A stretch of 64,000 nucleotides of DNA from Thermoproteota archaeon (GTDB lineage: Archaea; Asgardarchaeota; Njordarchaeia; Njordarchaeales; Panguiarchaeaceae). Each line of letters starts with the position of its first letter. Position 1 is the stretch's first letter. Under the pieces are notes generated by a model. The model saw nothing but the letters and a program-made list of their open reading frames with translations, did not search any database and had not been told where the DNA came from. The stretch is from assembly GCA_024720975.1 (NCBI GenBank), contig JANJXX010000003.1, positions 1 through 64,000 on the forward strand. Reading direction: 5' to 3'. This document shows, one piece after another, positions 12,945-35,179 of this stretch. Position numbers and translations under genes: made by a program.

Positions 12945-14222
12945 TCATAGTATCAGGAATGGAACATATATTAGCATGTTTACTACTGTTATTAGCGCCC
13001 CAATCTTCATAAACTCAGTGAATGTTATGGTTCTACTATACCTAGATTCTAATACCTCTAGAATGATAATATTAGATGCTGCCCCGAGCAGCGTTAGGTT
13101 CCCAGCTATCGTTGATGCACAGGCTAGAGTGAGCCATGCATTTATGTCCTGTCCAACATATCCAATGCTCTTCATGTAGCCTAAGTAAAGATTCGCTAGC
13201 GGTACGTTACTTAAAACTTGGCTAAGAAGTATTGCAATCAGCGAGATAGCGACTACTTCTTGCAGTAGGGGCATCTTTTGCGGATGTATTATGCCTATTA
13301 CTGGTTGCAAAACAGCACTTCTCCATATCCCCTCCATTGCTATAAACATTGCTATGAAGAATATTATTGTTCCCCAATCAATCCCTGAAATTATTTTTCT
13401 GGGCTCTGTCGATAGTGCATAGATTATAGATGCTACCACGAATGGTATGAAGCCTCTGTGTTTCACATGCGGTAAGCCGAAAAGTTCGAATATATCGTTG
13501 ATTAACAATGCAGCAATGGTTATTAGGAGTCCCACTCCAGCTAGTATTGCATCTCTTCTATTTTTGATTGCCTCATGAGGAATTAACACTATGTATATCT
13601 GCTTGTTCTCAATCCTGTAGAATCTTATTATTAGGAATGTTGAGATTACTAAGTTTATTATTGTCGGCACTAGCAAGTTCCTTAGGAAGAATATGAATGG
13701 CGCCATCATGCCTGATCTTACAGCTACTAAGATATTTTGAGGATTACCAATTGGAGTAGCTGTAGAACCTATCGTCAGCGAAAATGCGAGTAAAAGAAAC
13801 ATTATTTTTGCATCGACACCTATAAATTTGGCTATTGTATATGCGATTGGTGGACCCATCAATGCAACAGCATCATTAGTTGCGAATGCAGCTATAAAAC
13901 CAAACATGAATGCAGAACCAAACATCGCCCCATAGCGCGATTTAAACTTTGATAAGAAGTAATAGGCTATGGCTGTTAACAGACCAGATTGATCAGCAAG
14001 AGCTACTAAACTGAACATACCTATAAGGAAGAGTATAACGTCGAGCTCAATAAGCTCACCAATTTCGTCTATGCCAATGAGATCTGTAACTACAGTTATA
14101 AACGCAGCAAGAGTCATAATGCTCCATATTGGAATGCGTGGCTTCTTACTTCGCAGAATAAGAGCTGCTATCAAAAACATGATTATGCCAAGTCCAACCA
14201 GGGGTTTATAGTTTATAGCCAT
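12945..14222 (-). CDS. ArsB/NhaD/SLC13-like anion permease
   Basis: TNDA, GSTATPIGNPQN, LSNVP, STIAGNLTLLGAASNII; multiple TM helices. Confidence 0.88.
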   Translation of the reverse strand: MAINYKPLVGLGIIMFLIAALILRSKKPRIPIWSIMTLAAFITVVTDLIGIDEIGELIELDVILFLIGMFSLVALADQSGLLTAIAYYFLSKFKSRYGAMFGSAFMFGFIAAFATNDAVALMGPPIAYTIAKFIGVDAKIMFLLLAFSLTIGSTATPIGNPQNILVAVRSGMMAPFIFFLRNLLVPTIINLVISTFLIIRFYRIENKQIYIVLIPHEAIKNRRDAILAGVGLLITIAALLINDIFELFGLPHVKHRGFIPFVVASIIYALSTEPRKIISGIDWGTIIFFIAMFIAMEGIWRSAVLQPVIGIIHPQKMPLLQEVVAISLIAILLSQVLSNVPLANLYLGYMKSIGYVGQDINAWLTLACASTIAGNLTLLGAASNIIILEVLESRYSRTITFTEFMKIGALITVVNMLIYVPFLIL

Positions 14223-14387
14223 ATTGCACTCCCTTGGTCAATTTCTATTAATACAAGGACAATGTCACAAGTCGACAACAATGATTAGAGTTTTTGATAC
14301 GTATAAACAAATATTACAATAGCCACAAGGTAAGAAAACTGTGAAAACTAACTAACAAAGAGCATCAAGTCCCACATAAATTCCCTT

Positions 14388-14405
14388 TGCAAAGTAATCT
14401 TTGCA
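14388..14405. promoter_or_regulatory. Palindrome in a divergent promoter region (possible operator)
   Basis: TGCAAAG-TAAT-CTTTGCA between the divergent permease and aldolase genes. Confidence 0.25.
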
Positions 14406-14513
14406 GACGAGTTCTGAACTTCTGAAACGATTTCCCAAGATCTTCTTAGATGCGAAACAGAAAATTATATACTTTAAAGTAGTATCTATAGTTTTGCGCC
14501 TAACTGATCACGC

Positions 14514-15176
14514 GTGATTATAGTGGACTTGAGCAAATTGAAGGGCGAGATCATAAGGGTTGGCCGCCTCTTAATTAGGAAAAATCTTACCGTTGGCTCT
14601 TCAGGTAATATTAGCGTTAGGATCCCAGGTGAAGACAGGATAATAATAACCCCTAGCGGCGTGCCATTCAGAACAATGCTACCAGAGGAGTTAGTTATTA
14701 TTGATCTTGACGGAAGGGTAATTGAGGGAAAGAAAAAACCGTCTTCGGAGCTGCCTCTTCATCTTAAAATTTATAAGAGTAGACCAGATGTAAACGCGAT
14801 AATACACGCGCATACTATATATTGCTCAGTACTTGCTGCAACACAAACGCCAATACCCCCGATACTCGACGAGATGATTTTCTTCATAGGTGGGGACATC
14901 TTAGTTGCAAAATATGCGCCACCCGGTACTGAGGATTTGGCAAGGAATGCCCTTGAGGCATTAGGGACAAGAAAAGCTGTAATTCTAGCAAATCATGGGG
15001 TTGTAGCATGCGGGCGTGACCTTGAAGATGCTTTAGAGACTTTGGTCCGTGTTGAGAGAATCTCTCAAATATATATACTAGCAAAGCTAATTGGCGAGCC
15101 AAAGAGGCTGCCAGATGAGGTAATACGACGCGAAATTGAGGCTTACGAGCTCCGCAGGGAGGGCAAAAGCCTATGA
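14514..15176 (+). CDS. Class II aldolase/adducin family (L-fuculose-phosphate aldolase-like)
   Basis: SGNISVR, ITPSG, KPSSELPLH, IIHAH and LANHG (Zn ligands). Confidence 0.9.
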   Translation: MIIVDLSKLKGEIIRVGRLLIRKNLTVGSSGNISVRIPGEDRIIITPSGVPFRTMLPEELVIIDLDGRVIEGKKKPSSELPLHLKIYKSRPDVNAIIHAHTIYCSVLAATQTPIPPILDEMIFFIGGDILVAKYAPPGTEDLARNALEALGTRKAVILANHGVVACGRDLEDALETLVRVERISQIYILAKLIGEPKRLPDEVIRREIEAYELRREGKSL

Positions 15177-15341
15177 GATAGTCCTTAAGGTCCTGCCAAA
15201 TTGGCTTGGATTAACCATGTTCTTGTTGACTCTTGCAGTTAGAGTCTATATACTAAGTGGTTAAGAACCCGAAATTTCTATAAATTATTTCTCTCAAGAG
15301 TTGTAAGCACCGAGATTGAGCGTTCTTGTATGGTAGATTAG

Positions 15342-16253
15342 ATGAATGTAAGGGAGGAAATTCTTAACCTTAAGAGAGAGCTGAACGCTGCTATCTTAGC
15401 CCACAACTACCAGCCGTATGAAGTACAGGAAATAGCTGACTTCGTGGGAGATTCATTAGAACTCTCTCTACTCTCAACGAAATTAGATGCTGAGGTTATT
15501 GTATTTGCTGGAGTAAGATTCATGGCCGAACAAACTAAGGCTCTTAACCCTAACAAGAAGGTCCTAATGCCAATTCCTAGTGCCCTTTGCTCGCTTGCGA
15601 GTTTGGTCACTGTTGAGATGATAAAGGAGTATAGAGAAAAATATCCGGGCGCACCACTAGTCGTGTATGTGAACTCTCCCATTGAGGTAAAGGCAGAAGC
15701 TGACTACATAGTTACGTCTGCCAATGCCACGAAGCTTATCTCAAAGCTGAATTCAGACACAATTTTATTCTCTCCTGATGCAAATTTAGCTCATTATGTT
15801 GCTAAGGTTACGGGAAAGAAAGTTATTGCAATTCCACCAACTGGACACTGCTACGTACATTTACTAATAACTCCTTATGACATTCTGGAGGCAAAAAGAA
15901 AGTATCCAGATGCTATAGCTTTGGTTCATCCTGAGGTGCCGCCGGAGGCTCAAGAACTCGCCGATTATATTGCTGGAACTTCTGGTATGATAAAATTTGT
16001 CTCACGGAGCGACCACAAGAAATTTCTTATAGGCACGGAGACTGGAATGTTAAACAGACTTAGGAGAGAATTTCCTGATAAGGAATTTTATCCAATAGTT
16101 CCCAATGCTGACTGTATTGGAATGAAAAAGATAACACTTGAGTCTATATATTATAGTCTTAAGAACCTCGTCTATGAAGTTGTAATAAAGGAGGAGTACA
16201 TGCATAAAGTTCGTCGAGCTCTCGATAGGTCATTTGAAATCTTAGGTGTTTGA
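15342..16253 (+). CDS. nadA: Quinolinate synthase
   Basis: ILAHNYQ, GDSLEL, GVRFMAE, CSLA, YVNS, CYVH, HPE, C..MK. Confidence 0.96.
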   Translation: MNVREEILNLKRELNAAILAHNYQPYEVQEIADFVGDSLELSLLSTKLDAEVIVFAGVRFMAEQTKALNPNKKVLMPIPSALCSLASLVTVEMIKEYREKYPGAPLVVYVNSPIEVKAEADYIVTSANATKLISKLNSDTILFSPDANLAHYVAKVTGKKVIAIPPTGHCYVHLLITPYDILEAKRKYPDAIALVHPEVPPEAQELADYIAGTSGMIKFVSRSDHKKFLIGTETGMLNRLRREFPDKEFYPIVPNADCIGMKKITLESIYYSLKNLVYEVVIKEEYMHKVRRALDRSFEILGV

Positions 16254-17112
16254 TTTGTTGCCAGAGATTTTTGCAAAAAAATTTTTGGAATGGCTTGAAG
16301 AGGATGCACCATACGACGACATAACAACAATGCTGTTGGATAATGAGTGCTTTGAGGCTATATTATTGGCAAAGAGTGATGGTGTTGTAGCTGGATTGGA
16401 TCTGTTAGCAGAGACTTTGATTAAGTTTGGACTCCATGTTGAACAGTTTAAGAGAGATGGAGAAGAGTTTTCTAGCGGGGTAATATTGGCAACGATACGA
16501 GGGGACGTGAGAAAAATCCTGACGTTTGAGCGCACGCTGCTCAATATATTGAATAGACTGTGCGGGATCGCCAGACTAACAAGAATGGTTGTGAAAAAGG
16601 CCAAGGCGGTGAACCCTAATGTAAGAATCGCTGCAACTAGAAAGACTACACCAGGTTTAAGATTTCTGGAGAAGTATGCAGTTAGCGTTGGTGGTGGAGA
16701 CACCCACAGGTTTAGCCTGAGCGACCAGATACTTATAAAAGATAACCATGTACGTGCCATAGGAAGCGTAGAGGAGGCTATCAAAAGAGCTAAAAGTAAA
16801 GCTAGCTTCTCCCATAAAATCGAGATAGAGGTTTCATCTGTTGAGGACGCCTTAAAGGCAGCTGAGCTTGGTGCGGACATAATAATGCTAGATAACATGT
16901 CCCCAGGGGAGATAAGACTTGTAGTCAGCGAGCTTAAGAGGAGAGGATTAAGAGACAGAGTACTCCTGGAGGCATCAGGCAGAATAAATTTAGAAAATAT
17001 CGAAGAGTATGCTTCCACCGGAGTTGATGTGATATCTCTAGGAATAATTACACATTCGGCACCATCATGCGATATTAGTCTAGAACTTACGAAGCAGTGC
17101 ACGACCAGGTAG
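16246..17112 (+). CDS. nadC: Quinolinate phosphoribosyltransferase (carboxylating)
   Basis: ATRKTTPGLR, HRFSLSD, IKDNH, IEIEV, MLDNM, EASG. Overlaps nadA. Confidence 0.96.
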   Translation: MFDLLPEIFAKKFLEWLEEDAPYDDITTMLLDNECFEAILLAKSDGVVAGLDLLAETLIKFGLHVEQFKRDGEEFSSGVILATIRGDVRKILTFERTLLNILNRLCGIARLTRMVVKKAKAVNPNVRIAATRKTTPGLRFLEKYAVSVGGGDTHRFSLSDQILIKDNHVRAIGSVEEAIKRAKSKASFSHKIEIEVSSVEDALKAAELGADIIMLDNMSPGEIRLVVSELKRRGLRDRVLLEASGRINLENIEEYASTGVDVISLGIITHSAPSCDISLELTKQCTTR

Positions 17113-17173
17113 TTATATTAGCATTATTGATAATCAATTTTGGAGGAGTTTAGTAGTCTTGAGATAAAAAATT

Positions 17174-19159
17174 CTATTCTTTGTTAGTGCTACTTGATGC
17201 CGTAGGTAGCACTGAAGGGGCTTGAACTAAGAGTGCATCTATCATCGAGATTATCTGCTTGGGCTCGTTGTTAGTAAGTATTATTGCACCCGATGGGCAT
17301 GCTGCAGCACAAGTACCGCAGCCTTCGCAAGCTGCATCAATGATCTTAGCTCCCTCTGGTGTCATTTCGATAGCGTGATATGGACATAATTGTACACATA
17401 CTCCGCATCTAGAGCACGGCTCTTTGTTCACTCTTGCTATCAGGGGCTCCCTCTCTATGTAATCTTTGGAGAGAATTTCTACTGCTTTCTTTGCTGCTGC
17501 ACTGGCTTGCGCTACAGAGTCCTGTATATCTTTAGGACCTTGTGCCACTCCCGCTAGGAATATTCCTTTTATTGGCGATTCTACCGGTGCCAACTTTGGA
17601 TGTAGTTCTTGTAGAAAGCCGTTTTCATCCAGTGGTATCCTAAGCACATTTGCTATCTCTTTTGTATTGGGTACTATTCCTGTTGCCAGAACAACCATAT
17701 CAAATGGGAGGGTCATTGGTTTTCCAGTTATTGTATCAACCGCATGCACTATTAATTGATCTCCTTTTTGAACTATCTTTGAAACTCTTCCACGGATGTA
17801 TTTCACCCTACCCTCTTGCTGAACTCTCATGATGAATTCCTCATATTTCTTTCCTGCAGCCCTTATATCAATGTAGAATATGTATGCCTCACCATCAGGC
17901 ACCAAGTGCTTGTATAAAAAGGCGTGTTTGGCCGTGTACATACAACATATTCTAGAGCAGTAAGGTAAATGCTGAAGGTCTCTCGATCCAACACACTGAA
18001 TAAATGCTATCCTCTTGGGAATTTTACCATCACTGGGTCTTCTAAGTTCGCCTCCTGTTGGTCCTGTAGACGATATTAACCTCTCAAATTGAAGGGAATC
18101 TATAACATCCTCCAGTCTTCCGTAACCGTATTCTCCAATTTTTTCCTTTGGATATAAATCGTAGCCAGTTGCGACAATTATCGCTCCCACGTCCTCTTCA
18201 ATAATCTCCTCCTTGTCAAAGAGGTTTATCGCCTTTTGTTCACATACCTTCGCACATTCATTGCAGCGAGCTGTTCCAACACCGTGACAATGACTGGCGT
18301 CTATAACGTAAGCTGCAGGAATTGCTTGCGGGAAGGGTATGTATATCGCTTTTCTCACGGTTAGGGACCGGTTATAGTCCTTATCAAGAACTATCTGTGG
18401 GCAGACTTTTTCGCATTCACCACACATGTTACAGGCTCCTATATCAACATATCTGGGATTCTTTCGGATCTTGACCTTAAAGTTACCAATTGAGCCGCTT
18501 ACTTCTATAACCTCAGAGAGAGTATATATTTTAATGTTTGGATTTCGTGCGACCTCGGCCATTTTGGGTGTTAGAATACATTGAGCACAATCAAGCGTTG
18601 GAAAGGTTTCAGATAGCTGTGCCATTCTGCCACCTATCGTTGGGGACTTCTCGACAAGTATTACTTCAAATCCGTTATTGGCTACATCTAGGGCAGCTTG
18701 TATTCCAGCTATGCCTCCGCCTATGACTAAACACTTTTTCTTTACACTGCTTCTAACTTTCTCTAGGGGTTGGTCTCCAGCAACCTTGTTTACAGCACTC
18801 CACATGATTCCCAATGCCTTTTTAGTAGCTTCATTTACATCATCATGAACCCAACTATTCTGCTCCCTTATATTCGCCATCTCAACCTTGTACGGATTTA
18901 ACCCAGCACTGACGGCCGCAGTTCTGAATGTCTCTAGATGCATACTTGGCGAACAAGCAGCAACAACAATACCCGTTAGCCCATGTTTCTTTATGGCCTC
19001 ACGAATGATATTTTGTCCAACACTTGAGCACATATATTTGTACTCTTCAGCGTGGACTACAAGCGGATGTTTTCTTATTTTATCAACAACTTCCTTGACA
19101 TTGACTGCCCCAGCTATGTTTCTTCCGCAGTGACAAACAAATACTCCTATTCTCTCCAA
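17174..19159 (-). CDS. hdrA: Heterodisulfide reductase flavoprotein subunit A
   Basis: IGVFVCHCG, CS…ACSP, GGGIAG, TFPTLDCAQC, inserted and C-terminal ferredoxin motifs, IQCVGSRD, CSRICCMY. Confidence 0.95.
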   Translation of the reverse strand: MERIGVFVCHCGRNIAGAVNVKEVVDKIRKHPLVVHAEEYKYMCSSVGQNIIREAIKKHGLTGIVVAACSPSMHLETFRTAAVSAGLNPYKVEMANIREQNSWVHDDVNEATKKALGIMWSAVNKVAGDQPLEKVRSSVKKKCLVIGGGIAGIQAALDVANNGFEVILVEKSPTIGGRMAQLSETFPTLDCAQCILTPKMAEVARNPNIKIYTLSEVIEVSGSIGNFKVKIRKNPRYVDIGACNMCGECEKVCPQIVLDKDYNRSLTVRKAIYIPFPQAIPAAYVIDASHCHGVGTARCNECAKVCEQKAINLFDKEEIIEEDVGAIIVATGYDLYPKEKIGEYGYGRLEDVIDSLQFERLISSTGPTGGELRRPSDGKIPKRIAFIQCVGSRDLQHLPYCSRICCMYTAKHAFLYKHLVPDGEAYIFYIDIRAAGKKYEEFIMRVQQEGRVKYIRGRVSKIVQKGDQLIVHAVDTITGKPMTLPFDMVVLATGIVPNTKEIANVLRIPLDENGFLQELHPKLAPVESPIKGIFLAGVAQGPKDIQDSVAQASAAAKKAVEILSKDYIEREPLIARVNKEPCSRCGVCVQLCPYHAIEMTPEGAKIIDAACEGCGTCAAACPSGAIILTNNEPKQIISMIDALLVQAPSVLPTASSSTNKE

Positions 19160-19161
19160 TC

Positions 19162-20040
19162 TTATCCCTCCTTTCCGACCATTCTATCTAATAGGTTCTT
19201 AATTTCTGGTTCGAGCGCATCATCTAATCCAAAAGCATAGGCTATAAGTTCAGAAACGTAAAGAATTGGTAGCTCAAGGCCTCTAAGCTCTTTTCTTCTT
19301 CTCTTCTGGCCCTCCTCAAGATTATACGCACATAGTGGGCATGTGGTCACAATGAGCTTTGCACCATAGTCACTAGCGGACTTAACGATCTCCTTCGCTC
19401 TATCCCAAACGTATTCTGGTGCGCTGACAACATTAAAACTTCCGCAACACTCATTTCTATATGGGTAATCGACTGGATTTGCATTGAGCCTTAGCAGCAG
19501 TTCCTCTATAATTACTGGATCTTCCGGATCATCTATTGCAACCTCTCTGGGTCTGAGAATCAAACAACCATAGAATGATGCTACGTTTAATCCTTTCAGG
19601 TTTCTTTTGACCTTATCTCTTATTTTATCATACCCGAGGATATCACGCAGAATCTCCAGAAAATGCATTATTCTCAGTTTTCCCTCATAGTTAGAGGGTT
19701 CGTCGGATAGGAATGCATTTAATTTCTGGGCTGCATCTGGATCATTCTTGTATAGGTTGTCCGCCATTTTAAGGACGTGATTACACATAGAGCATAAAGT
19801 CAGAAGGATGTTCTCTGTATTACTCTTTTTCATTGTTAGTTCTGACCTTATGAGAGTTCTTATGGAAGCGACAGCTTGGATCACTGTATCTTTAGGTAGA
19901 TTGTAGGTCGCACCGCAACAAATCCAGTTTTCGACTTCAATGGGCTCTATACCTAGTACTCTTAATACCTGCAGTGATGCTTTTTCGTCTCTCAATGCTG
20001 TCGCTTTAACTGTGCATCCAGGGTAGTACAGAATCCTCAT
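19162..20040 (-). CDS. hdrB: Heterodisulfide reductase subunit B (two CCG domains)
   Basis: YYPGC…CCGA…CSMC and FYGC…CCGS…CPLC. Confidence 0.93.
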   Translation of the reverse strand: MRILYYPGCTVKATALRDEKASLQVLRVLGIEPIEVENWICCGATYNLPKDTVIQAVASIRTLIRSELTMKKSNTENILLTLCSMCNHVLKMADNLYKNDPDAAQKLNAFLSDEPSNYEGKLRIMHFLEILRDILGYDKIRDKVKRNLKGLNVASFYGCLILRPREVAIDDPEDPVIIEELLLRLNANPVDYPYRNECCGSFNVVSAPEYVWDRAKEIVKSASDYGAKLIVTTCPLCAYNLEEGQKRRRKELRGLELPILYVSELIAYAFGLDDALEPEIKNLLDRMVGKEG

Positions 20041-20049
20041 ATAATCACC

Positions 20050-20415
20050 TCATGTGTACTTCCTACCAGCGGCAACTAGGGCTATCGGAGGAAGCTTCTC
20101 TAGATCCTCAACTTTTCTTAGATCAATTGTTTGTTGTTGGGCTCTAACCTTAATTGTTCTAAGTCCTTCCATAATTCTGGCGACGTCAAGATTTCGCGGA
20201 CATCTGACTGAGCAAGTGAAGCATGTGGCGCATATCCATATAGATTTTGCATTGAGTGCATTCATATCATTTAGTTGAACCATATGGATTACTTGGTAGG
20301 GAAGATGGTCCATTTTATCTGCCATCGGACAACCAGCACCACATTTGCCACAGAAATAGCATAAATATACATCTTCTCCCGTTATCTCAAGGATTTTATC
20401 TGCCAGATTTGTCAT
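20050..20415 (-). CDS. hdrC: Heterodisulfide reductase subunit C
   Basis: CYFCGKCGAGCP and IWICATCFTCSVRCPR. Confidence 0.92.
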   Translation of the reverse strand: MTNLADKILEITGEDVYLCYFCGKCGAGCPMADKMDHLPYQVIHMVQLNDMNALNAKSIWICATCFTCSVRCPRNLDVARIMEGLRTIKVRAQQQTIDLRKVEDLEKLPPIALVAAGRKYT

Positions 20416-20972
20416 TTCTTTTCACTCTCCACAAGCTTCCTACCATATTCATATCCTACTTCAAAGGCTCTCACGTTTAAATCTACATATCGACCTCTTA
20501 CCCCTTCTATAACGCTCCTCTTTACAGTCTCCTTATCGATTAAGTTAGATATTGCCGTGAATGCACCTATCATTACAATGTTGGCAACAATCCTCCTACC
20601 GACGCTTTCAGCCATTTTTGTGGCTGGAACTGCATAAATCTTTGCTTTTTTAGCTCTTTCGTCAAGTGTTACAAGATCATTGTCATATATAAGAACTCCA
20701 CCAGGCTTCAATAGATCTATGTATGAGTCATAAGCCTCTTGATACATAACTATTAGATAATCTGCATTTCTAACTAGTGGACAATCTACTTCCCTCTCAC
20801 AATCAATGACAACTCTAGAGGCGCATCTACCTCCTCTTGCTTCTGGACCGTAACTTGGAAGATATGTTGAATTATATCCTCTCAACATTGCGGCGTTTCC
20901 GAGTATCCAACCGGCGAGCAGTATTCCCTGTCCTCCGAATCCTCCAATCAGAATTTCTATCCTACTCATCAT
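20412..20972 (-). CDS. korC: 2-oxoacid:ferredoxin oxidoreductase gamma subunit
   Basis: GFGGQGILLAG, SYGPEARGG, ANIVMIGA, NVRAFEVG. Confidence 0.92.
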   Translation of the reverse strand: MMSRIEILIGGFGGQGILLAGWILGNAAMLRGYNSTYLPSYGPEARGGRCASRVVIDCEREVDCPLVRNADYLIVMYQEAYDSYIDLLKPGGVLIYDNDLVTLDERAKKAKIYAVPATKMAESVGRRIVANIVMIGAFTAISNLIDKETVKRSVIEGVRGRYVDLNVRAFEVGYEYGRKLVESEKK

Positions 20973-22414
20973 GATCGCCCTATTGTTTTTATAAGTTCTC
21001 CGTTTGAGTTGTAAATGCTAACATAAACCCTTATTCCGCCTGGAATGCTATGTGTCGAACACGCTAAGCATGGATCATAAGCCCTAAACGCCATTTCTAT
21101 CATGTTTAATACTTTGTCATCGAATTTACCAGCTGTTAGAAGCTTTGAGGCAACCTTCTTTATGTCTAGGTTTATTGATGAATTATTCATTGTTGTAGGG
21201 ATTATCAAATTCACTTTAGTAGTTATTCCTCGCTCATCCGCCTCGTAATGATGTATTAAGAGACCACGAGGAGCTTCAACCACTCCGACGCCAAAGCCAC
21301 TGAATTTACCATCATAGTTTACGACATCCCTAGACAACAATTCGCTATCCTCCACAAGCTCAAACATTCTTTCAGCTGCATACACCATCTCTATAGCCCT
21401 AGCGAAATGATATGCCATCGTATGATGAGCAGGTTTTCCAAAGGTTTCTACGAATTGTTTGTAGTACTCTTGTGCTTTCTCTGTTGCAAAGCCGTTGGAG
21501 GCGTTCAACCTGCCCAAAGGACCAACTCTATATATTCCGCTACTCGTATCAATTCCCCTCCACCCAATCTTTTTCAGATATGGCATCTTTGTGTAGCTCC
21601 ATTCAACAACTTTTTCTCCGATGTAATCTAGATAATCTTTGGGCTCGAAGACAAAGGCCTCGTTTCCTTTCTTATCAACAACTCTAATCCTACCATCGTA
21701 GAAGTTCAACTTATTATTCTTATCCACGAGACCTGCGTAATATGTTTCCAGATGATAGTAATCCCCAAAGATTATGTCCTTATACTCACTCCTTTGCAGA
21801 ATTCCATTGAGAAGCTCAACAGTCTCCGTCGAGAACTTAAGAAGCTCCTTTGCATAATTCCTAATTTCCTCGACCTCCTCCTTGGAGAGAGATTTACTTA
21901 CGCCGCCGGGAATCGCAGTCACAGGGTGTATGGCTTTTCCTCCGATAATTTCCTCAATCCTAACAATTTTATCTCTCATCTCAAGAACTTTCTTAACCAA
22001 TTCAGGATTACTTTTGTATAGACCTACTAAACTCCGCTCTCGCCTGGGAGCGCCTGGTGACAGAGCAAAATCTGGTAGTGCTAATGCGTATAGATGAACT
22101 GAGTGACTGTCTAATATATGTGCGCAATAACCCAGTTCCCTTATTTTCTTAGCAGCAGGCGTAGGTTCTCTGCCAAATACCATGTCGACGGCCTTTGCTG
22201 ATGCCATGTGATGAGCCCATGGACAGACTCCACAGATTCTGGTTACTATTCCTGGTAGTTCTTCTACGGGTCTTCCAACGCAGAATTTCTCGAAGCCTCT
22301 AAACTCGAGTACTTGAAAGAATGTATCCTTTACTTTCCCTTTTTCATCCAGAAATATCTTTATCTCAGCTTCTCCTTCAAGCCTTGTCGCCGGACTGATT
22401 TTAATTATGCTCAT
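20969..22414 (-). CDS. mvhA: F420-non-reducing [NiFe] hydrogenase large subunit (group 3c)
   Basis: TRLEG, RGFEKF, RICGVC, EAPRG, RAYDPCLACSTH plus a C-terminal extension. Confidence 0.94.
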   Translation of the reverse strand: MSIIKISPATRLEGEAEIKIFLDEKGKVKDTFFQVLEFRGFEKFCVGRPVEELPGIVTRICGVCPWAHHMASAKAVDMVFGREPTPAAKKIRELGYCAHILDSHSVHLYALALPDFALSPGAPRRERSLVGLYKSNPELVKKVLEMRDKIVRIEEIIGGKAIHPVTAIPGGVSKSLSKEEVEEIRNYAKELLKFSTETVELLNGILQRSEYKDIIFGDYYHLETYYAGLVDKNNKLNFYDGRIRVVDKKGNEAFVFEPKDYLDYIGEKVVEWSYTKMPYLKKIGWRGIDTSSGIYRVGPLGRLNASNGFATEKAQEYYKQFVETFGKPAHHTMAYHFARAIEMVYAAERMFELVEDSELLSRDVVNYDGKFSGFGVGVVEAPRGLLIHHYEADERGITTKVNLIIPTTMNNSSINLDIKKVASKLLTAGKFDDKVLNMIEMAFRAYDPCLACSTHSIPGGIRVYVSIYNSNGELIKTIGRS

Positions 22415-23400
22415 TCTCTCCTCACCATTCTAACCAAGCGGCTCAAACCCAGTGTGAATCTATAAAATAATCCTGCTGGGTCCATGATTGTAACTCTCTT
22501 GGATAATTCATCATCTGAGAGCTTAGGTTCATTCTCTATTTCCACCAATGACGGTAAAGCACTAACAAGCTTAGCTCCAACATCGTATATATTCGGAGCC
22601 GGGCCCATACAGCCTCTACAAGGCATATTAGCCTTTATGCATGGTGAACCGCATCCACCTCTAGTAGCTGGACCAAGGCATATAGCTCCTTGAGCCAAGA
22701 AACACTTGCTCGGATCTAACCTTACTTCGTGAATCCTCTTAAATCTATCTATGACTATTTTCTCGGGCTTTTCCCTCGGGCACTCATCACAAAGAGTTCT
22801 TGTCCCAGCAATGACTGTTCCCTTTTCTAGACTTATTCTCCCCTCAAAGTACTTGATAAGCTTGTTTACAGCCTCTGAAATTATCTCCTTAGGCGGCGGA
22901 CAACCTGGCACGTATACATCAACATCAATAAAATCATCGACTTTATAATTAATCTCAACGAGTTTGGGAGCGGTAATTTTATATGGATTTGCCTTGCTTT
23001 CACCTGGGAGTATCCTTTCCTCGTTGATAGTTGATGGTGACTTTAAGTAGGCTTCATTAAGAACCTCTTCAAGCTTGTATAAATCGGCAAGACTTTGCAC
23101 TCCACCAAAGCATGCACATGCACCAAATGCAACTTTAATCTTAGCCTTGCTAGCAACTCTTTCTATGATCTCCTTGTGTTTTTCTGTTCTGATGCTTCCC
23201 TGGAAGAGTGCTATGTCTATGCTTTCTAACTCATCGAGATCTTCTTCCTTAAAATCCATTGCTATGGGCCAGAAAACTATATCAGCCAGGCCAATAACAT
23301 CAATTAAGTTCTTATGCAGATCAACTAGTGCCATGTCACAACCGCCGCAAACTTCTCCAGGAACGACAGCTATCTTGAGCTTTCTACTCATGTTTATCAC
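22411..23400 (-). CDS. mvhG: F420-non-reducing hydrogenase small subunit
   Basis: CGGC, FGACAC, PGCPP, CDEC, CFL…CLGPATRGGC, MPCRGC. Confidence 0.93.
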   Translation of the reverse strand: MINMSRKLKIAVVPGEVCGGCDMALVDLHKNLIDVIGLADIVFWPIAMDFKEEDLDELESIDIALFQGSIRTEKHKEIIERVASKAKIKVAFGACACFGGVQSLADLYKLEEVLNEAYLKSPSTINEERILPGESKANPYKITAPKLVEINYKVDDFIDVDVYVPGCPPPKEIISEAVNKLIKYFEGRISLEKGTVIAGTRTLCDECPREKPEKIVIDRFKRIHEVRLDPSKCFLAQGAICLGPATRGGCGSPCIKANMPCRGCMGPAPNIYDVGAKLVSALPSLVEIENEPKLSDDELSKRVTIMDPAGLFYRFTLGLSRLVRMVRRE

Positions 23401-23821
23401 CTAAGGGACCAAGTTTCCTTATCTCTTCAGTAAATTCTCTAGCCACCTCGGCAAACTTTTTGCCTTCCGTAGCAGAAATCCATTCAAGCCTGATTCTCTG
23501 TGGCTCTATACCAATCTGCCTTAGGAGTTCTTTCATAACAGAAACTCTTTTCAAGGCCTTGAAATTACCCCTAAGGAAGTGACAATCACTAGGAGTGTGG
23601 CATCCTCCTATCAGTACACCATCCGCTCCCATTTCAAAAGCCCTAACAATAAACTGCATGTCGACACTTCCAGAGCATGGAACTGTTATAGGAAGGATGT
23701 TAGCTGGATACTTCAGCCTGCTAACACCAGCAAGGTCGGCGCCGGCTGATGCACAATACTTGCACAGGAATGCAATTATCTTAGGCTCCCAATTCTTATT
23801 CCTCTCTTCCATTAAAAACAC
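23384..23821 (-). CDS. mvhD: Hydrogenase [2Fe-2S] adaptor subunit
   Basis: FLCKYC, ADLAG, VPCSG, GADGVLIGGCH…DCHF, RLEWISA. Confidence 0.94.
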   Translation of the reverse strand: MFLMEERNKNWEPKIIAFLCKYCASAGADLAGVSRLKYPANILPITVPCSGSVDMQFIVRAFEMGADGVLIGGCHTPSDCHFLRGNFKALKRVSVMKELLRQIGIEPQRIRLEWISATEGKKFAEVAREFTEEIRKLGPLGDKHE

Positions 23822-23842
23822 CTAAGGACTAAAGTTGAGGAC

Positions 23843-24700
23843 TTATTGCAGATCACTTCTCCTTAATTCTTTCTGTGCTATTTCAATCAGTCGCCTTATC
23901 CTATCATCAAATGACTCCTTCCCTTCAATCTTAACAAACTCTCCTATTATAAATTTCTTACCCCATACAATATCTGCTTCACGAGGATCTGGATTTTTAA
24001 CATAAACCGCATTTTCTTTGAGATATCTGAGGTTGTCGAGAGGGTCTGGAAGGGCATTCCTTCGTCCAAAATCTGTTGGGCAGGTAGATATAACCTCTAT
24101 GACTCTAAAGCCCTTCATTTGAAATGCTGTTTTGATACTTTCAGTAAGATTACGCAAATGATACACTGTCCACCTAGCAACATAAACTGCACCACTTGCT
24201 GCGGCCAGCCAGACGGCATTAAATGGTGGCTCAGTGTAGTTTCCATATGGCGTAGTTGTTGTTCTCACGCCTTCTGGTGTTGTTGGTCCCACTTGTCCTC
24301 CGGTCATACCATAGTTAAAGTTATTCACTAATATCACTAGTATGTCGACGTTTCTCCTCGCAGCATGTATAAAGTGATTTCCTCCTATTGCTAGTAGATC
24401 ACCATCACCAGAAATTACCACTACATGCAGGTCTGGTCTAGCTAATTTAAGACCCATAGCAAATGGTATTGGTCTACCATGCGTCGTATGAAAGCCATCG
24501 TAGGCCCAGTAACCACTCGCACGCCCGGAGCAGCCAATTCCAGAAACAATCACAACTTTCTTTGGATCAATATTTAACTCCTCTATTGCCTTTGCAAATG
24601 CATTAAATATCATCCCCATACCGCAACCAGAGCACCATATGTGGGGGAGTCTTTCTGATCGGACAAATTTTTCTATAGGATGTACTAGCGCCGTGATCAT
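23843..24700 (-). CDS. korB: 2-oxoacid:ferredoxin oxidoreductase beta subunit (TPP)
   Basis: WCSGCG, GIGCS, HTTHGR, SGDGD…IGGNH, NNFNYGMTGGQ, CPT. Confidence 0.94.
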   Translation of the reverse strand: MITALVHPIEKFVRSERLPHIWCSGCGMGMIFNAFAKAIEELNIDPKKVVIVSGIGCSGRASGYWAYDGFHTTHGRPIPFAMGLKLARPDLHVVVISGDGDLLAIGGNHFIHAARRNVDILVILVNNFNYGMTGGQVGPTTPEGVRTTTTPYGNYTEPPFNAVWLAAASGAVYVARWTVYHLRNLTESIKTAFQMKGFRVIEVISTCPTDFGRRNALPDPLDNLRYLKENAVYVKNPDPREADIVWGKKFIIGEFVKIEGKESFDDRIRRLIEIAQKELRRSDLQ

Positions 24701-25852
24701 TTACTTCACCTCTAAAATTTTCCCGAGCACCTCCTCTGGGAAGATCCATCTACCACCATAATTCCCAACCCAAAAAACTTCAGACCTTCCTTTTGAAGCC
24801 CTTTCGACCTCTCGTGTTATCTGTCCTTCATTAATTTCGGCTACGATGAATTTCTTGACTTTTTTAGCGAGCTCAAAGATAACTTCATCAGGGAATGGCC
24901 AAATTGTTTTGAGCTGCAAAAAACCGACTTTTATCCCTTCCTTTCTAGCCATATCAACTGCACTCTTTGCACTTCTAGCTGCAGATCCATAGGAGACTAC
25001 AACTATATCAGCATCCTCGCACTTATACATCCTATAATCAATTATCTCATGCTTTCTCTTACGTATCTTGTCCAACAACCTTCGCACTAGTACATTTTGC
25101 ACCTCTGGATCCGCTGAGGGATATCCTCTCTCGTCATGGGTTAGGCCTGTCGATTGTATTCTGAAGCCCTCCCCAACTGGTGCCATTGGTGGAACTAAGT
25201 CGTCATCTGCCTTGTATGATAGGTAACCATTTGGATCTTTGGCAAGCTTTCTATTAATTATTATAACATCCCTTGGATCAGGAACGACAACTTTTTCATA
25301 CATGTGTGAAATGCCTTCATCAGCTAGTATTATTACTGGCGTTCTGAACTTTTCTGAGAGATTAAACGCCATTATTGTTAGATCGAAAGCCTCTTGCACA
25401 GTGCTCGGCGATAGAGCTATTATTTCATACGGACCATGAGATCCCCACTTGGCTTGCTGAACATCACCCATACCTATCATCGTTGGTATGCCCGTTGATG
25501 GACCAGCCCTTTGCACGTCCACTATTACTATTGGAACCTCCATCATTACAGCTAAACCTATGTTTTCCTGCATAAGTGAGAATCCTGGACCTGATGTAGC
25601 AGTCATTGATTTTAGTCCTCCCCACGAAGCACCGATTATCGATACTATAGAAGCTATTTCATCCTCCATCTGCACAAATATCCCTCCAACCTGAGGAAGG
25701 CGCCAAGATAGTCTTTCAGCTATTTCATTTGATGGCGTTATCGGATAGCCCGCATAGAACCTACAACCAGCAAATATTGCTGCCTCGGCTATAGCATCAT
25801 TTCCACTCCAGAAATACATCCCAGGTTTAACTTCTCCCACCAAATTCATCAT
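24701..25852 (-). CDS. korA: 2-oxoacid:ferredoxin oxidoreductase alpha subunit
   Basis: GNDAIA, YAGYPITP, QMEDEIAS, TATSGPGFSLMQE, QRAGPSTG. No fused gamma domain. Confidence 0.94.
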   Translation of the reverse strand: MMNLVGEVKPGMYFWSGNDAIAEAAIFAGCRFYAGYPITPSNEIAERLSWRLPQVGGIFVQMEDEIASIVSIIGASWGGLKSMTATSGPGFSLMQENIGLAVMMEVPIVIVDVQRAGPSTGIPTMIGMGDVQQAKWGSHGPYEIIALSPSTVQEAFDLTIMAFNLSEKFRTPVIILADEGISHMYEKVVVPDPRDVIIINRKLAKDPNGYLSYKADDDLVPPMAPVGEGFRIQSTGLTHDERGYPSADPEVQNVLVRRLLDKIRKRKHEIIDYRMYKCEDADIVVVSYGSAARSAKSAVDMARKEGIKVGFLQLKTIWPFPDEVIFELAKKVKKFIVAEINEGQITREVERASKGRSEVFWVGNYGGRWIFPEEVLGKILEVK

Positions 25853-26165
25853 CTGATTCTATCGGAACACTAAATATTGCAAAGTCAGGGCATATAAGAG
25901 AACAAAAACCGCAAGCTATACACACCTTAAGCGGGGGTTCCTCAACAACAACAGGATAATGATAACCCCTCTCATTGACATCCTCAGACTTCACAAGAAC
26001 CTTTGAAGGACAATTATCAATACAGAACCCACATTCCTTGCACCGCTCCTTGATAATATAAACCTTCCCCCTCCTTATTGGTACCCTCCTCTGCTCAATA
26101 ATCTTTATTCTCCTCTCCTCCTCGAGCTCGGCCAAACTTTTACGGAATGACATTTCAAGCACCAT
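25827..26165 (-). CDS. korD: 2-oxoacid:ferredoxin oxidoreductase delta (ferredoxin) subunit
   Basis: CKECGFCIDNCP and CIACGFCSLICPDFAI; first gene of the operon. Confidence 0.88.
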   Translation of the reverse strand: MVLEMSFRKSLAELEEERRIKIIEQRRVPIRRGKVYIIKERCKECGFCIDNCPSKVLVKSEDVNERGYHYPVVVEEPPLKVCIACGFCSLICPDFAIFSVPIESDDEFGGRS

Positions 26166-26372
26166 ACACCTTAATATATAATAACGAAGACGAAATAAAT
26201 ACAGATTTTATATACATAGACAAATACACAAGGAAAACTCAATAAATTGCCAATCCGTCAGGATTATCCTAAACAACCTTGCATGCAATATTTAATGATA
26301 ATGCTCAATAAGGAGTTTTATATAGCGCAAAAGATGCTCTCTTTTAATTAGAAAAACCGAAAGGTTAGCCTC

Positions 26373-32658: not shown

Positions 32659-33396
32659 TTGGTGAATCTATTGCAAGATAAGACTGAGCAGATACCAATG
32701 AAAGAGGTTAAGCCTCGCATGGTTACTATTTACTACATGGGGAAGGCTTACCAAGTTCCTGAAGGAATAACTATTATCAAAGCTCTGGAGTACATCGGTT
32801 ACAGGTTGGTGCGAGGTGTTGGATGCAGGAGTGGATTCTGTGGTGCTTGTACTACGTTCTATCGGAAGAAAAATGACTATAGACTGTATTCGGGTTTAGC
32901 TTGTCAGACTCCAGTCGAGGATGGCATGTACTTAACGCAACTACCCTTCATTCCGGCTGAGAGGAGAAGATATAGGATTGAGGACGCCAAGGCTGATTTT
33001 CATTTTGTGCTGTCTCTTTATCCTGAGATTGCTAGGTGTGTTGGATGCAATTCATGTACTAGGGTTTGTCCTCAAGAGATACAAGTTATGGATGCCGTTC
33101 AGGCGATACTCAGGGGTGATCTAGCAAAGGCTGCAAAAATGGTCTTTGATTGTATCTCTTGTGGGGCTTGTAGTATGAGGTGCCCTGCTGAGATTGTGCA
33201 TTACAATGTCTTCCAACTTGTTAGGAGGTTGTATGGTAAGTATATTGCTCCAAAGGCGAAGCATTTAGCAAGTAGGGTTGAGGAGATACAAAACAATTAT
33301 TACGAGGAACAATTTAAGAAGCTGTTCTCCATGAGTGTTAATGATTGGAAGGTTTTGGCGGAGAAGCTTCAGAAGAAGGAGAGTATAACCATATGA
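32659..33396 (+). CDS. SdhB/FrdB-like Fe-S protein ([2Fe-2S] + 2x[4Fe-4S])
   Basis: GCRSGFCGAC…LACQ, CVGCNSCTRVCP, CISCGACSMRCP. Start may be ATG 32698. Confidence 0.85.
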   Translation: MVNLLQDKTEQIPMKEVKPRMVTIYYMGKAYQVPEGITIIKALEYIGYRLVRGVGCRSGFCGACTTFYRKKNDYRLYSGLACQTPVEDGMYLTQLPFIPAERRRYRIEDAKADFHFVLSLYPEIARCVGCNSCTRVCPQEIQVMDAVQAILRGDLAKAAKMVFDCISCGACSMRCPAEIVHYNVFQLVRRLYGKYIAPKAKHLASRVEEIQNNYYEEQFKKLFSMSVNDWKVLAEKLQKKESITI

Positions 33397-33406
33397 GGTG
33401 AAGAAA

Positions 33407-35050
33407 ATGAAGCATCCGGGTTACCCGCCTGAATTTTGGGACTCAATAGAGAGAGTTGAAGAAACTCGCGATAAGAGGCTAAAAGAGAAATTTCCAAAGA
33501 TGTCGGTGACTGAAAGAGAGGATATTGTACGCAAATATCACCCAGATTACAAGGAGGGTACAAAGAGGCCTGTTCGCGTTGGAGCCTATAAGGGTCAGCT
33601 AGCACCTCATGAGGTCGCAGATTTGCTTGAGGCTCATGCCTTGATAAACCCAGATGACGTAGATTTAAGCAATGTAGACTATGACACTGACGTATTAGTT
33701 ATAGGCGGCGGTGGTGCTGGGGCATCTGCAGCATTGTGGGCTAATATAAGTGGTGTTCCGGCAGATCAAATCTTAATAGTCACAAAGCTAAGATTTGGAG
33801 ATTCAAACACGAAGGGAGCCCAGGGTGGTATACAAGCGGCTGATAGAGAGTATGACTCTCCCATATACCACTTCCTGGATGTACTATATGGAGGTCATTT
33901 TACGAATGATCCAGAACTCGTAAAAATTCTTGTCACTGAAGCACCACTAATAATAAAATTCCTAGAGGACTTAGGTGTTATGTTTGATAAAGAATCTAAC
34001 GGAGTAATGATCGAGGTTTCAGGTGGAGGATGTAGCAGAGACCGCATGCACTCCTGTGGTGATTACACAGGACTTGAAATAATGCGCGTATTAATGGACG
34101 AAGTTCTCAATAGAGGGATACCAGTCCTAGAATTTTCTCCTGCTGTTGAGCTCATAACTGATGACCGAGGGCAAGTAGCAGGAGCTGTTGTTATGAATCT
34201 TGAGACAGGAAGATACCACGTGGTACGTGCTAAAGCAACAATAATAGCAACTGGTGGCTTTGGAAGGCTACACATACAGGGCTTTCAAACATCTAATCAC
34301 TACGGAGCAACTATGGATGGCGTCGTTTTGGCTTACCGAGTTGGAGCTCAATTGAGAGATATGGATGCTGTTCAATATCATCCAACTGGTGCAGCGTGGC
34401 CTCCCCAACTCGCTGGTCAGCTAGTAACTGAAAAAGTGCGCTCGTTAGGTGCCCAGCTAGTAAATGTCAATGGCGAGCAATTCGTATACGAGCTAGAACC
34501 AAGGGATACTGTATCTGCTGCTATAATTCGCGAGTGTGAAGAGAGGAAGAGGGGCATAAAGACTATAGTGGGTTGGGGCGTTTGGCTGGATAGCCCGATG
34601 ATCGAGATAATACATGGTGAGGGAACTATAGAAAAATTCTTACCGGCGATGTTTAGGCAATTTAGGAGGTATGGGATTGACATAAGAAAGGAGCCAATAT
34701 TGACCTATCCAACACTCCACTATCAAAATGGAGGTATTCTGATAAACCAGTACACGCAGGTCCTAGACGCCGAAAGAAAACCAATACCTAATCTATTCGC
34801 TGCTGGTGAATGCACAGGTGGTGTACATGGAAAGAATAGGCTAATGGGCAATAGTCTACTAGAGATAACAGTATTTGGTCGTCGTGCAGGAAATTTTGCA
34901 GCTAAACATGTGAAGAATGTCTCCCTTGGTAAGCTAACATTAGATCATGTAACCAAATGGGAGAATATGCTCAAAGAAGCCAAGATAAGAAGCAGTAAGA
35001 AGGCACCAATAATTCTTCCGGACTATCGAGGAGACATGATATTTAGGTAA
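33407..35050 (+). CDS. Succinate dehydrogenase/fumarate reductase-family flavoprotein with non-covalent FAD (Tfr-like)
   Basis: GGGGAG, SNTKGAQGG (no FAD-linking His), QYHPTG, TEKVR, PRDTV, HYQNGG, HGKNRLMGNSL. ATG 33407 follows GAGGTGA. Confidence 0.88.
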   Translation: MKHPGYPPEFWDSIERVEETRDKRLKEKFPKMSVTEREDIVRKYHPDYKEGTKRPVRVGAYKGQLAPHEVADLLEAHALINPDDVDLSNVDYDTDVLVIGGGGAGASAALWANISGVPADQILIVTKLRFGDSNTKGAQGGIQAADREYDSPIYHFLDVLYGGHFTNDPELVKILVTEAPLIIKFLEDLGVMFDKESNGVMIEVSGGGCSRDRMHSCGDYTGLEIMRVLMDEVLNRGIPVLEFSPAVELITDDRGQVAGAVVMNLETGRYHVVRAKATIIATGGFGRLHIQGFQTSNHYGATMDGVVLAYRVGAQLRDMDAVQYHPTGAAWPPQLAGQLVTEKVRSLGAQLVNVNGEQFVYELEPRDTVSAAIIRECEERKRGIKTIVGWGVWLDSPMIEIIHGEGTIEKFLPAMFRQFRRYGIDIRKEPILTYPTLHYQNGGILINQYTQVLDAERKPIPNLFAAGECTGGVHGKNRLMGNSLLEITVFGRRAGNFAAKHVKNVSLGKLTLDHVTKWENMLKEAKIRSSKKAPIILPDYRGDMIFR

Positions 35051-35179
35051 GCCACCTTTTTTATCTATCCCCAAGACCTAGCCTGCAGGGTAGCAGACTT
35101 TGAGAAAGCGAACTTCTTATAAGCAATTTAAACCAATAAATACCATTAACTTACTCAAGGAAGTTTACCATGATCTCTG

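Follow-up and report, generated by a model that had tools for sequence, protein, structure and literature searches.

Genes of a 2-oxoacid:ferredoxin oxidoreductase interleaved with a hydrogenase-heterodisulfide reductase operon in an Asgard archaeon: a candidate H2-driven bifurcation module with fumarate reductase as partner

Why are the genes of a 2-oxoacid:ferredoxin oxidoreductase (Kor) threaded through those of a [NiFe]-hydrogenase (Mvh) and a heterodisulfide reductase (Hdr), and which electron acceptor would such an assembly serve? The question is raised by a window of 64,000 nucleotides (the whole stretch of DNA analysed here), the first 64 kb of the 149.5 kb contig JANJXX010000003.1 in the Asgard assembly GCA_024720975.1 (Panguiarchaeaceae), a metagenome-assembled genome (MAG) of 1.36 Mb in 29 contigs that is 81% complete. 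Ten consecutive minus-strand open reading frames (ORFs) span 26165-17174 in the order korD-korA-korB-mvhD-mvhG-mvhA-korC-hdrC-hdrB-hdrA. An initial sequence-only reading of the window had described this order; the ORF list and Pfam and NCBIfam searches, in which all ten proteins match named families, confirm the order, the coordinates and the position of korC apart from korDAB. That reading left out a conserved fumarate reductase partner, the pair TfrB*A*. We propose, at about even probability, that the operon encodes a 2-oxoglutarate-type KorDABC, a group 3c MvhAGD and HdrABC as a bifurcation module working in the direction of H2 uptake, with TfrB*A* as the partner of HdrCB.

The ten genes form one predicted operon, in which every junction is an overlap or a gap of at most 31 nt. 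The first gene on the minus strand, korD (25827..26165; delta subunit, 2x[4Fe-4S], 112 aa; best named matches OGOR_delta and OorD), is followed by korA (24701..25852; alpha subunit, 383 aa; POR_N and PFOR_II domains, PRK08659), the stop codon of which immediately precedes the start of korB (23843..24700; beta (TPP) subunit, 285 aa; TPP_enzyme_C, best named match 2-oxoglutarate ferredoxin oxidoreductase beta). The hydrogenase genes are mvhD (23384..23821; [2Fe-2S] adaptor, 145 aa; FlpD, 172 bits), with a reading frame that overlaps that of mvhG (22411..23400, with ATG 23391 as a possible start; small subunit, 329 aa; Oxidored_q6, VhuG-like, 202 bits), and mvhA (20969..22414; group 3c-type large subunit, 481 aa; NiFeSe_Hases, VhuA-like, 407 bits). 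Next to them stands korC (20412..20972; gamma subunit, 186 aa; full-length match to POR), and the minus-strand series ends with hdrC (20050..20415; a short form with 2x[4Fe-4S], 121 aa) and hdrB (19162..20040; two CCG domains, 292 aa), both recognised by Pfam and NCBIfam, and hdrA (17174..19159; FAD and six [4Fe-4S] sites, 661 aa; 659 bits to PDB 5odc_A). The gaps are 9 nt between hdrC and hdrB and 2 nt between hdrB and hdrA, which starts at TTG 19159. ATGA overlaps of start and stop codons, already noted in the sequence-only reading, are found at 22414-22411, 20972-20969 and 20415-20412. The only real spacer is that between korB and mvhD, which measures 21 nt from GTG 23821 and 31 nt from ATG 23811; the ATG is the more likely start, because it has GGTG just upstream and fits the N-termini of orthologues, and the earlier statement that all other junctions overlap or are 21 nt or less holds only if the GTG is used. 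The minus-strand intergenic stretch upstream of korD (26166..26372), with AT-rich TATA-like boxes at about 26216-26203 and 26186-26174, is the probable operon promoter, and a run of six T within a few bases after the hdrA stop (17160..17173, minus strand) is a probable archaeal terminator.

Both enzymes have their full complement of subunits: the MvhADG-HdrABC set comprises the Mvh/Vhu-type large and small subunits, the MvhD [2Fe-2S] protein, HdrA, HdrB and HdrC, and that of Kor consists of intact alpha, beta, gamma and delta subunits. MvhA keeps both Ni-Fe cysteine motifs (RICGVCPWAH and DPCLACSTH), the two CxxCxxCxxxCP motifs of KorD are invariant among aligned sequences, and the cluster cysteines of HdrA are all present and likewise invariant in alignment. 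All ten cysteines of the two CCG motifs are present in HdrB, which matches the SdhE subunit of type-E fumarate reductases (127 bits) about as well as it does HdrB (132 bits). HdrC aligns only to positions 32-114 of the 198-position methanogen profile, and its orthologues in the same type of cluster are mostly 121-138 aa long. KorA scores 551 bits with PRK08659, above the cut-off of 411, and its PDB matches include 1yd7 (423 bits) and the 2-oxoglutarate synthase 8ys5 (312 bits). The best named matches of KorA, KorB and KorD are all of the OGOR/Oor (2-oxoglutarate:ferredoxin oxidoreductase) type, the generic alpha model being the only one to pass its cut-off. The putative specificity for 2-oxoglutarate and succinyl-CoA is further supported by the clustering with fumarase, SucCD and Tfr.

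A chimeric join might produce such an interleaved order in a MAG of 29 contigs and 81% completeness, and the probability of this is vanishingly small. DNA around the best KorC orthologues was taken from 20 related genomes, and the ten operon proteins were mapped onto each. G003, a genome of the same genus, carries the identical ten-gene order on an independent contig, with proteins that are 81-89% identical. In G001 and G004, of the same genus too, the operon is permuted and has 12 genes (mvhD-mvhG-mvhA-korC-hdrC-hdrB-tfrB*-tfrA*-hdrA-korD-korA-korB). In all three, korC lies between mvhA and hdrC, and the KorC orthologues are 75-81% identical. The junctions, moreover, consist of overlapping start and stop codons, and the window sits on a long contig. 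Misassembly is rejected, since the order is common to independent MAGs; nor is it unique to this assembly, the two ways in which the survey of gene order might have dissolved the earlier observation.

Among the loci examined, korC is parted from korDAB by other genes in this genus only; almost all the other loci have korDABC in one piece, as had been assumed of Kor genes at the outset. The slot between mvhA and hdrC is filled in other lineages by the gene of a HycI-type hydrogenase maturation protease of ~160 aa, which in the source genome is located outside the operon. On this comparison korC came to its interleaved place by a rearrangement specific to the genus, in which korDAB and hdrA have moved and yet stayed within the operon. 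We considered the position of korC as a sign of contact between KorC and HdrC or MvhA, and rejected it, as the HycI gene holds that place in other lineages and neighbour pairs vary. Relative to G003, nonsynonymous divergence (dN) of the operon genes is 0.07-0.17 while synonymous sites are saturated (dN alone is therefore given), which argues that the arrangement is old and that the operon genes, korC included, are under purifying selection. The gene arrangement, by these comparisons, goes beyond chance.

What, then, is constant around the Hdr genes? Twelve proteins (the ten of the operon plus TfrB*A*) were mapped on 38 loci of the phylum, and the phylum-wide core is hdrA-mvhD-mvhG-mvhA-protease-hdrC-hdrB-tfrB*-tfrA*. 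hdrC-hdrB directly precedes tfrB* in 15 of the 17 loci with visible upstream context, the exceptions being the window and G003; in G001 and G004 the pair accounts for the extra genes between hdrB and hdrA, which encode a 548-aa flavoprotein and a 239-aa Fe-S protein. Kor adjoins Hdr in half of the phylum Kor loci (10/20), and does so in several ways. G016, G036 and the single-contig genome G037 have korDABC directly upstream of the core. In G033, which showed no tfr genes, it precedes hdrA-mvhDGA; it is divergently oriented in G008 and stands behind a fused hdrA-mvhD in G024 and G034. The adjacent pairs vary by lineage (korC-hdrA, mvhD-korD, hdrA-korD, korB-mvhD). In G038 and G032 the hdr-mvh-tfr operon has fumarase genes next to it. 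The donor module is exchangeable between MvhAG, a Flx-like set and a ferredoxin-fused MvhD. In G016 (L023, 6217-9086) MvhAG is replaced by the Flx-like set, also found in a Eubacteriales locus (L071, 14938-17810) and made up of a 328-aa Fe-S protein, an AsrA/HydB-like protein and an AsrB/HydG-like NAD(P)H flavoprotein. In G036 (L024, 5066-7492) a 339-aa protein joins MvhD to a 2x[4Fe-4S] ferredoxin domain, and after it the place of MvhGA is taken by a Fer4_11 protein and a pair of ORFs that have no Pfam match.

In the source genome the tfr pair, inside the operon in G001 and G004, lies 6.5 kb away on the opposite strand. tfrB* (32659..33396, plus strand) encodes an FrdB/TfrB-N-like Fe-S subunit of 245 aa that has no CCG domain and is 68% identical to the product of the gene between hdrB and tfrA* in G004. 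tfrA* (33398..35050, plus strand) encodes a flavoprotein of 550 aa, predicted to be that of a soluble fumarate reductase with non-covalent FAD; its best match is TfrA (343 bits), and its identity to the counterpart inside the G004 operon is 75%. Where SdhA/FrdA have the histidine that binds FAD covalently, asparagine is found in 18/18 TfrA* orthologues, all of which keep the dicarboxylate-binding His-Pro-Thr, Glu, Arg, His and Arg; a 90-aa N-terminal extension is also conserved. When E. coli Frd is deprived of its covalent FAD link, fumarate reduction is kept and succinate oxidation is abolished. TfrB* matches only the N-terminal Fe-S part of TfrB, the CCG domains residing in the separate HdrB. 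The equal scores of HdrB with HdrB and SdhE, and the lack of CCG domains in TfrB*, would fit direct wiring from HdrCB to TfrB*A*. The best reading is that the conserved partner of HdrCB would be TfrB*A*, a soluble fumarate reductase, rather than a free heterodisulfide.

A mechanism can be proposed from these parts. MvhA would oxidise H2 and pass electrons through MvhG and MvhD to the flavin of HdrA, where every electron pair would be split. The high-potential electrons would travel by HdrC and HdrB to TfrB*A*, where fumarate would be reduced to succinate, and those of low potential would leave by the ferredoxin domains of HdrA, to ferredoxin or straight to KorD, and drive the carboxylation of succinyl-CoA with CO2 to 2-oxoglutarate at Kor. 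The net reaction would be 2 H2 + fumarate + succinyl-CoA + CO2 -> succinate + 2-oxoglutarate + CoA, with no need for CoM-S-S-CoB (the heterodisulfide of coenzymes M and B), and its stoichiometry would match one bifurcation event to each turn of the reductive branch. The standard potential (E0') of fumarate/succinate is about +30 mV and that of H+/H2 is -414 mV, and ferredoxin and the Kor couple both lie at about -500 mV. With these values, delivery of electrons from 2 H2 to fumarate and Kor has a free energy of roughly -70 kJ in the standard state and is still exergonic at 10 Pa H2, and the reverse, from succinate and 2-oxoglutarate to 2 H2, would need H2 below ~0.1 Pa. The H2-consuming direction is favoured because of these potentials and of the non-covalent FAD of TfrA*.

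The gene content of the source genome is in line with this direction. Class I fumarase, SucCD, Kor and TfrA* are encoded, and citrate synthase, isocitrate dehydrogenase, glutamate dehydrogenase of the ELFV type and malate dehydrogenase of the Ldh type were not found in the 81% complete genome. The encoded stretch would run malate/fumarate-succinate-succinyl-CoA-2-oxoglutarate, and no oxidative route to 2-oxoglutarate was seen. Some 3 kb beyond hdrA the window also encodes a di/tricarboxylate transporter of the CitMHS family (12945-14222, minus strand), which could serve in the uptake or export of fumarate, succinate or 2-oxoglutarate.

Is the linkage of Kor to Hdr confined to this phylum? From an 18-sequence KorA alignment we retrieved the 80 closest KorA loci, with one genome per prokaryotic species and up to 10 kb of flank. 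Of these, 33 carry one or more genes of the hdr, mvh or tfr groups, in most cases hdrA together with mvhD, and 8 of those 33 also have tfrB* and/or tfrA*. Both hdrA and mvhD occur at 23 of the 80 loci, and at 11 of the 32 where each flank is 6 kb or longer. Archaeal taxa with the linkage include Heimdallarchaeota, Thermoplasmata and Bathyarchaeia, and bacterial ones Chloroflexota, Thermodesulfobacteriota, Spirochaetota, Planctomycetota, Bacillota, Vulcanimicrobiota, Bipolaricaulota and Verrucomicrobiota. Two gene orders prevail, korDABC-hdrA-mvhD(-hdrC-hdrB-tfrB*-tfrA*) and (fused hdrA-mvhD)-korDABC. One Eubacteriales locus has fumarase after korDABC, and the neighbours of kor include sucCD in an Anaerolineae locus and sucC in methanogens.

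In the KorA tree the window sequence groups with the Hdr-linked Kor of the phylum and one sequence from Vulcanimicrobiota, and methanogen KorA, with no Hdr genes nearby, forms a separate clade. The sequence-only reading had looked to such a tree for the substrate; the clustering with Hdr-linked Kor is what it yields, and the substrate is predicted from best matches. The Hdr-linkage label changes 7 times on the tree as against 19.8 in shuffles, a contrast that is inflated by relatedness. A second type of Kor-linked Hdr is made up of a fused HdrA-MvhD of ~800-826 aa beside korDABC with no fumarate reductase (L021/L022 of G034/G024, L060, L072, L062, L068, L097 and L122); its loci have only distant HdrB/C-like genes (25-35% identity), some of them fused to ~480 aa. 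That Kor, Mvh and Hdr form one conserved functional module is strongly supported by the recurrence of these gene neighbourhoods, and the earlier proposal of a Kor-Mvh-Hdr module stands as a functional linkage conserved across phyla and in both domains.

Whether the module is also a physical one is a separate matter. The sequence-only reading had gone from enforced co-translation to a physical complex, a step that our results do not bear out. In models of the KorD-HdrA complex, made from alignments of 17 rows for HdrA and 14 for KorD, the median score was 0.58 (runs 0.00, 0.58 and 0.65) and that of the best of three controls was 0.15. The mark used was reached by 58/80 solved complexes and 2/110 mismatched pairs, and scores of 0.60 or less belong to only 7 of the 80 solved complexes and to both passing mismatched pairs. 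The runs share 0% of contacts (partner pLDDT, the predicted local distance difference test, at least 72), and a KorD-HdrA interface has weak support. A search with KorD for longer proteins recovered no Kor-Hdr or Kor-Mvh fusion, which is weak evidence; the two longer KorD-containing proteins found are both fused to a BlaI-type repressor domain. We put the hypothetical Kor-Hdr supercomplex at roughly one in three.

The discordant runs and the missing fusion weigh against our proposal, as do several other points. HdrB keeps both CCG motifs complete, so a small thiol/disulfide shuttle would be possible. In the source genome and in G003 tfrB*A* lies outside the operon, and in the source genome the pair is directly upstream of a group 3b hydrogenase operon (35180-39037); because of this placement, its wiring may have changed in this lineage. 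The specificity of Kor for 2-oxoglutarate is a prediction from best family and PDB matches. Kor itself is an optional member of the module, being linked at 10/20 loci of the phylum and 33/80 of the wider set. Published reconstructions for related genomes, too, assign the 2-oxoacid oxidoreductases to catabolism and have the hydrogenases evolve H2 or work reversibly (PMC12411855, PMC7015854).

In one alternative the electrons run the other way: Kor would oxidise 2-oxoglutarate or other 2-oxoacids from amino-acid fermentation, HdrA would merge electrons from Kor with thiol electrons from HdrBC, and MvhADG would release H2. Published Asgard metabolic models run Mvh-Hdr in this manner (Imachi et al. 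2020, PMC7015854), and the Panguiarchaeum study treats 2-ketoacids as electron sources (PMC12411855). The presence of SucCD, which makes 2-oxoglutarate -> succinate + ATP possible, would suit such confurcation too, as would the intact CCG motifs and the removal of tfrB*A* from the operon in the source genome. Against this stands the phylum-wide HdrCB partner, a fumarate reductase with non-covalent FAD; by established potentials succinate cannot be the high-potential donor at realistic H2 pressures. Moreover, the cluster has no linked genes for a thiol cofactor pathway or for an enzyme that forms disulfides, and glutamate dehydrogenase is not among the genes found in the 81% complete genome. 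We consider this alternative unlikely, though a serious one. Of the two directions that had been offered earlier, the use of bifurcated low-potential electrons for carboxylation is accordingly the one favoured, and the H2-evolving one is thermodynamically unlikely because the conserved partner is a fumarate reductase.

A further alternative is that Kor, Mvh-Hdr and Tfr are separate soluble enzymes, placed in one regulon because each handles ferredoxin or intermediates of the TCA (tricarboxylic acid) branch, that HdrBC reduces some other disulfide, and that gene order, the place of korC included, is neutral shuffling with neither a complex nor direct wiring behind it. It would account for the variation of neighbouring pairs between lineages, for the half of the phylum loci that have no Kor in the cluster, and for the want of a fusion and the disagreement among complex-model runs; it is established, too, that methanogens run the same three enzymes unlinked. 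It does not sit well with a linkage kept across two domains and through several rearrangements, with genes that remain one operon despite permutation within a genus, or with the near invariance of hdrC-hdrB-tfrB*-tfrA* where it is visible (15/17); the KorD-HdrA score, too, is well above controls, if weak as support. We regard co-regulation alone as improbable. At the other extreme one can imagine a Mvh-Hdr-Tfr-Kor megacomplex, ancestral in Asgard archaea and driven by H2, that feeds both electron halves directly into two steps of the reductive TCA branch (fumarate -> succinate and succinyl-CoA -> 2-oxoglutarate) with neither free ferredoxin nor heterodisulfide, and this we hold to be just as improbable. 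Were it real, the 'unidentified heterodisulfide' long sought as acceptor of the Asgard Mvh-Hdr would be fumarate, and this widespread hydrogenase would take up H2 and not release it.

The idea of bifurcated electrons flowing to both Kor and fumarate reductase has precedents, so that the earlier remark that no such complex was known to have been described no longer holds. A flxABCD-hdrABC-korABCD-tfrAB cluster for the reductive TCA (rTCA) cycle is present in tubeworm symbionts and Thioflavicoccus mobilis (Rubin-Blum et al. 2019, PMC6315080; Mitchell et al. 2024, PMC11636981), and a complex that would hand bifurcated electrons straight on to both OGOR and fumarate reductase was proposed for it (PMC6315080). 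The cluster is co-expressed as an operon, with KorABCD between HdrA and HdrBC (Mitchell et al. 2024, PMC11636981). As in our operon, kor genes are interspersed with hdrABC and a gene of the MvhD type (there FlxD); in contrast, the input is a NADH-dependent FlxABC there and the [NiFe]-hydrogenase MvhAG here, and the hosts are autotrophic bacteria with a full rTCA cycle, whereas only fumarase, Tfr*, SucCD and Kor were found here. In addition, korC is here split from korDAB, and tfrB*A* lies 6.5 kb off.

A soluble two-subunit fumarate reductase is likewise tied to HdrABC in the 'succinate operon' of Pseudoclostridium thermosuccinogenes, where this novel enzyme is accompanied by fumarase and Flx-Hdr (Koendjbiharie et al. 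2020, PMC7282089, citing for it a preprint of 2019 by Koendjbiharie and van Kranenburg). There, succinate formation is proposed to be coupled to ferredoxin reduction, and the fumarase adjacency is also seen in Asgard relatives. It differs in being bacterial, in having NADH as donor and in listing no Kor, and the evidence for it is transcriptomic and stoichiometric.

The methanogen MvhADG-HdrABC (PDB 5ODC and later entries) shares with the present system its six subunit families, the HdrA cysteines, both HdrB CCG motifs and a Mvh/Vhu-type hydrogenase. Here, unlike there, HdrC is truncated (121 aa), Kor genes are in the operon, and HdrB is followed by fumarate reductase in relatives. In methanogens TfrAB, Mvh-Hdr and an anabolic KorABCD serve the reductive branch as separate enzymes. 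Chemistry and stoichiometry are alike in that branch and in our proposal, 2 H2 reducing fumarate and supplying ferredoxin for 2-oxoglutarate synthase. Methanogen TfrB, by contrast, has C-terminal CCG domains of its own and works with free CoM-SH and CoB-SH, while the Fe-S subunit described here has no CCG domain and in relatives stands beside HdrB. TfrAB is the thiol:fumarate reductase of Methanothermobacter (Heim et al. 1998, as cited in a passage of PMC8163825), and in the same source the existence of a CoM-S-S-CoB cycle is described as undetermined. Neither MCR alpha nor ComA was found in the 81% complete genome, and absence from an incomplete MAG is no proof; because neither was found, CoM-S-S-CoB is an unlikely substrate of this Hdr. 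In the Fmd-Hdr-Fdh/Mvh megacomplex of Methanospirillum hungatei (PDB 7BKB), a ferredoxin-consuming, CO2-fixing enzyme is wired to the low-potential exit of HdrA, as would hold for a Kor docked on HdrA. There the enzyme is formylmethanofuran dehydrogenase, reached through a polyferredoxin, and the association is proven; here it is weakly modelled. The searched passages of the Asgard literature mention no linkage to Kor or to fumarate reductase. The present system is a hydrogenase-driven archaeal variant of a module that has so far been a hypothesis for bacteria.

For the Asgard Mvh-Hdr, synteny offers a testable acceptor, namely fumarate by way of a dedicated soluble reductase, with Kor as consumer of the low-potential electrons. 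If our proposal is true, Asgard archaea would, in this context, consume H2 with their most widespread cytosolic hydrogenase system, which would bear on syntrophy models of eukaryogenesis in which Mvh-Hdr is taken to release H2. Across many anaerobic phyla, about a third of the closest KorA loci link Kor with HdrA and MvhD, and this suggests that powering 2-oxoglutarate synthesis by flavin-based bifurcation is common, though as yet uncharacterised.

The surroundings of the tfr pair in the window hold a second set of redox genes. After 130 nt, tfrB*A* is followed by genes for HydB-like Fe-S and HydG-like NAD-binding proteins and the small and large [NiFe] subunits (32659-39037 in all, plus strand), an adjacency to the group 3b hydrogenase that hints at a second, non-bifurcating route from H2 or NAD(P)H to fumarate in this lineage. 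When the tfr-hydBGDA adjacency was compared, the tfr flanks in G003 (L038) matched nothing near the tfr copy of the window.

TfrA* is the sole flavoprotein of the FrdA/NadB family in the source genome at E<=1e-40. NadB, NadX and aspartate dehydrogenase (Asp_DH_C) were not found in the 81% complete genome, and genes for NadA (quinolinate synthase) and NadC are present in the window, at 15342-17112 on the plus strand, convergent to the end of hdrA. A hidden L-aspartate oxidase was considered as the main function of TfrA* and not adopted, given its constant Fe-S partner, its position after hdrCB and its co-occurrence with fumarase and Kor; as a side role, TfrA* might double as the iminoaspartate-forming enzyme. 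Antisense to nadC is an ORF of 286 aa (16242-17102, minus strand) with no Pfam match, most likely a spurious shadow ORF.

Further Hdr genes were seen outside the operon. A second HdrA paralogue with 51% identity is encoded on the same contig outside the window (G000:C23:145595-147523). In G004 two small ORFs upstream of mvhD (L015, 12941-13652, minus strand) are by eye TusA-like, with a CPGP motif, and DsrE-like, and beside them, at 14149-18950, is a second hdrCB-hdrA set.

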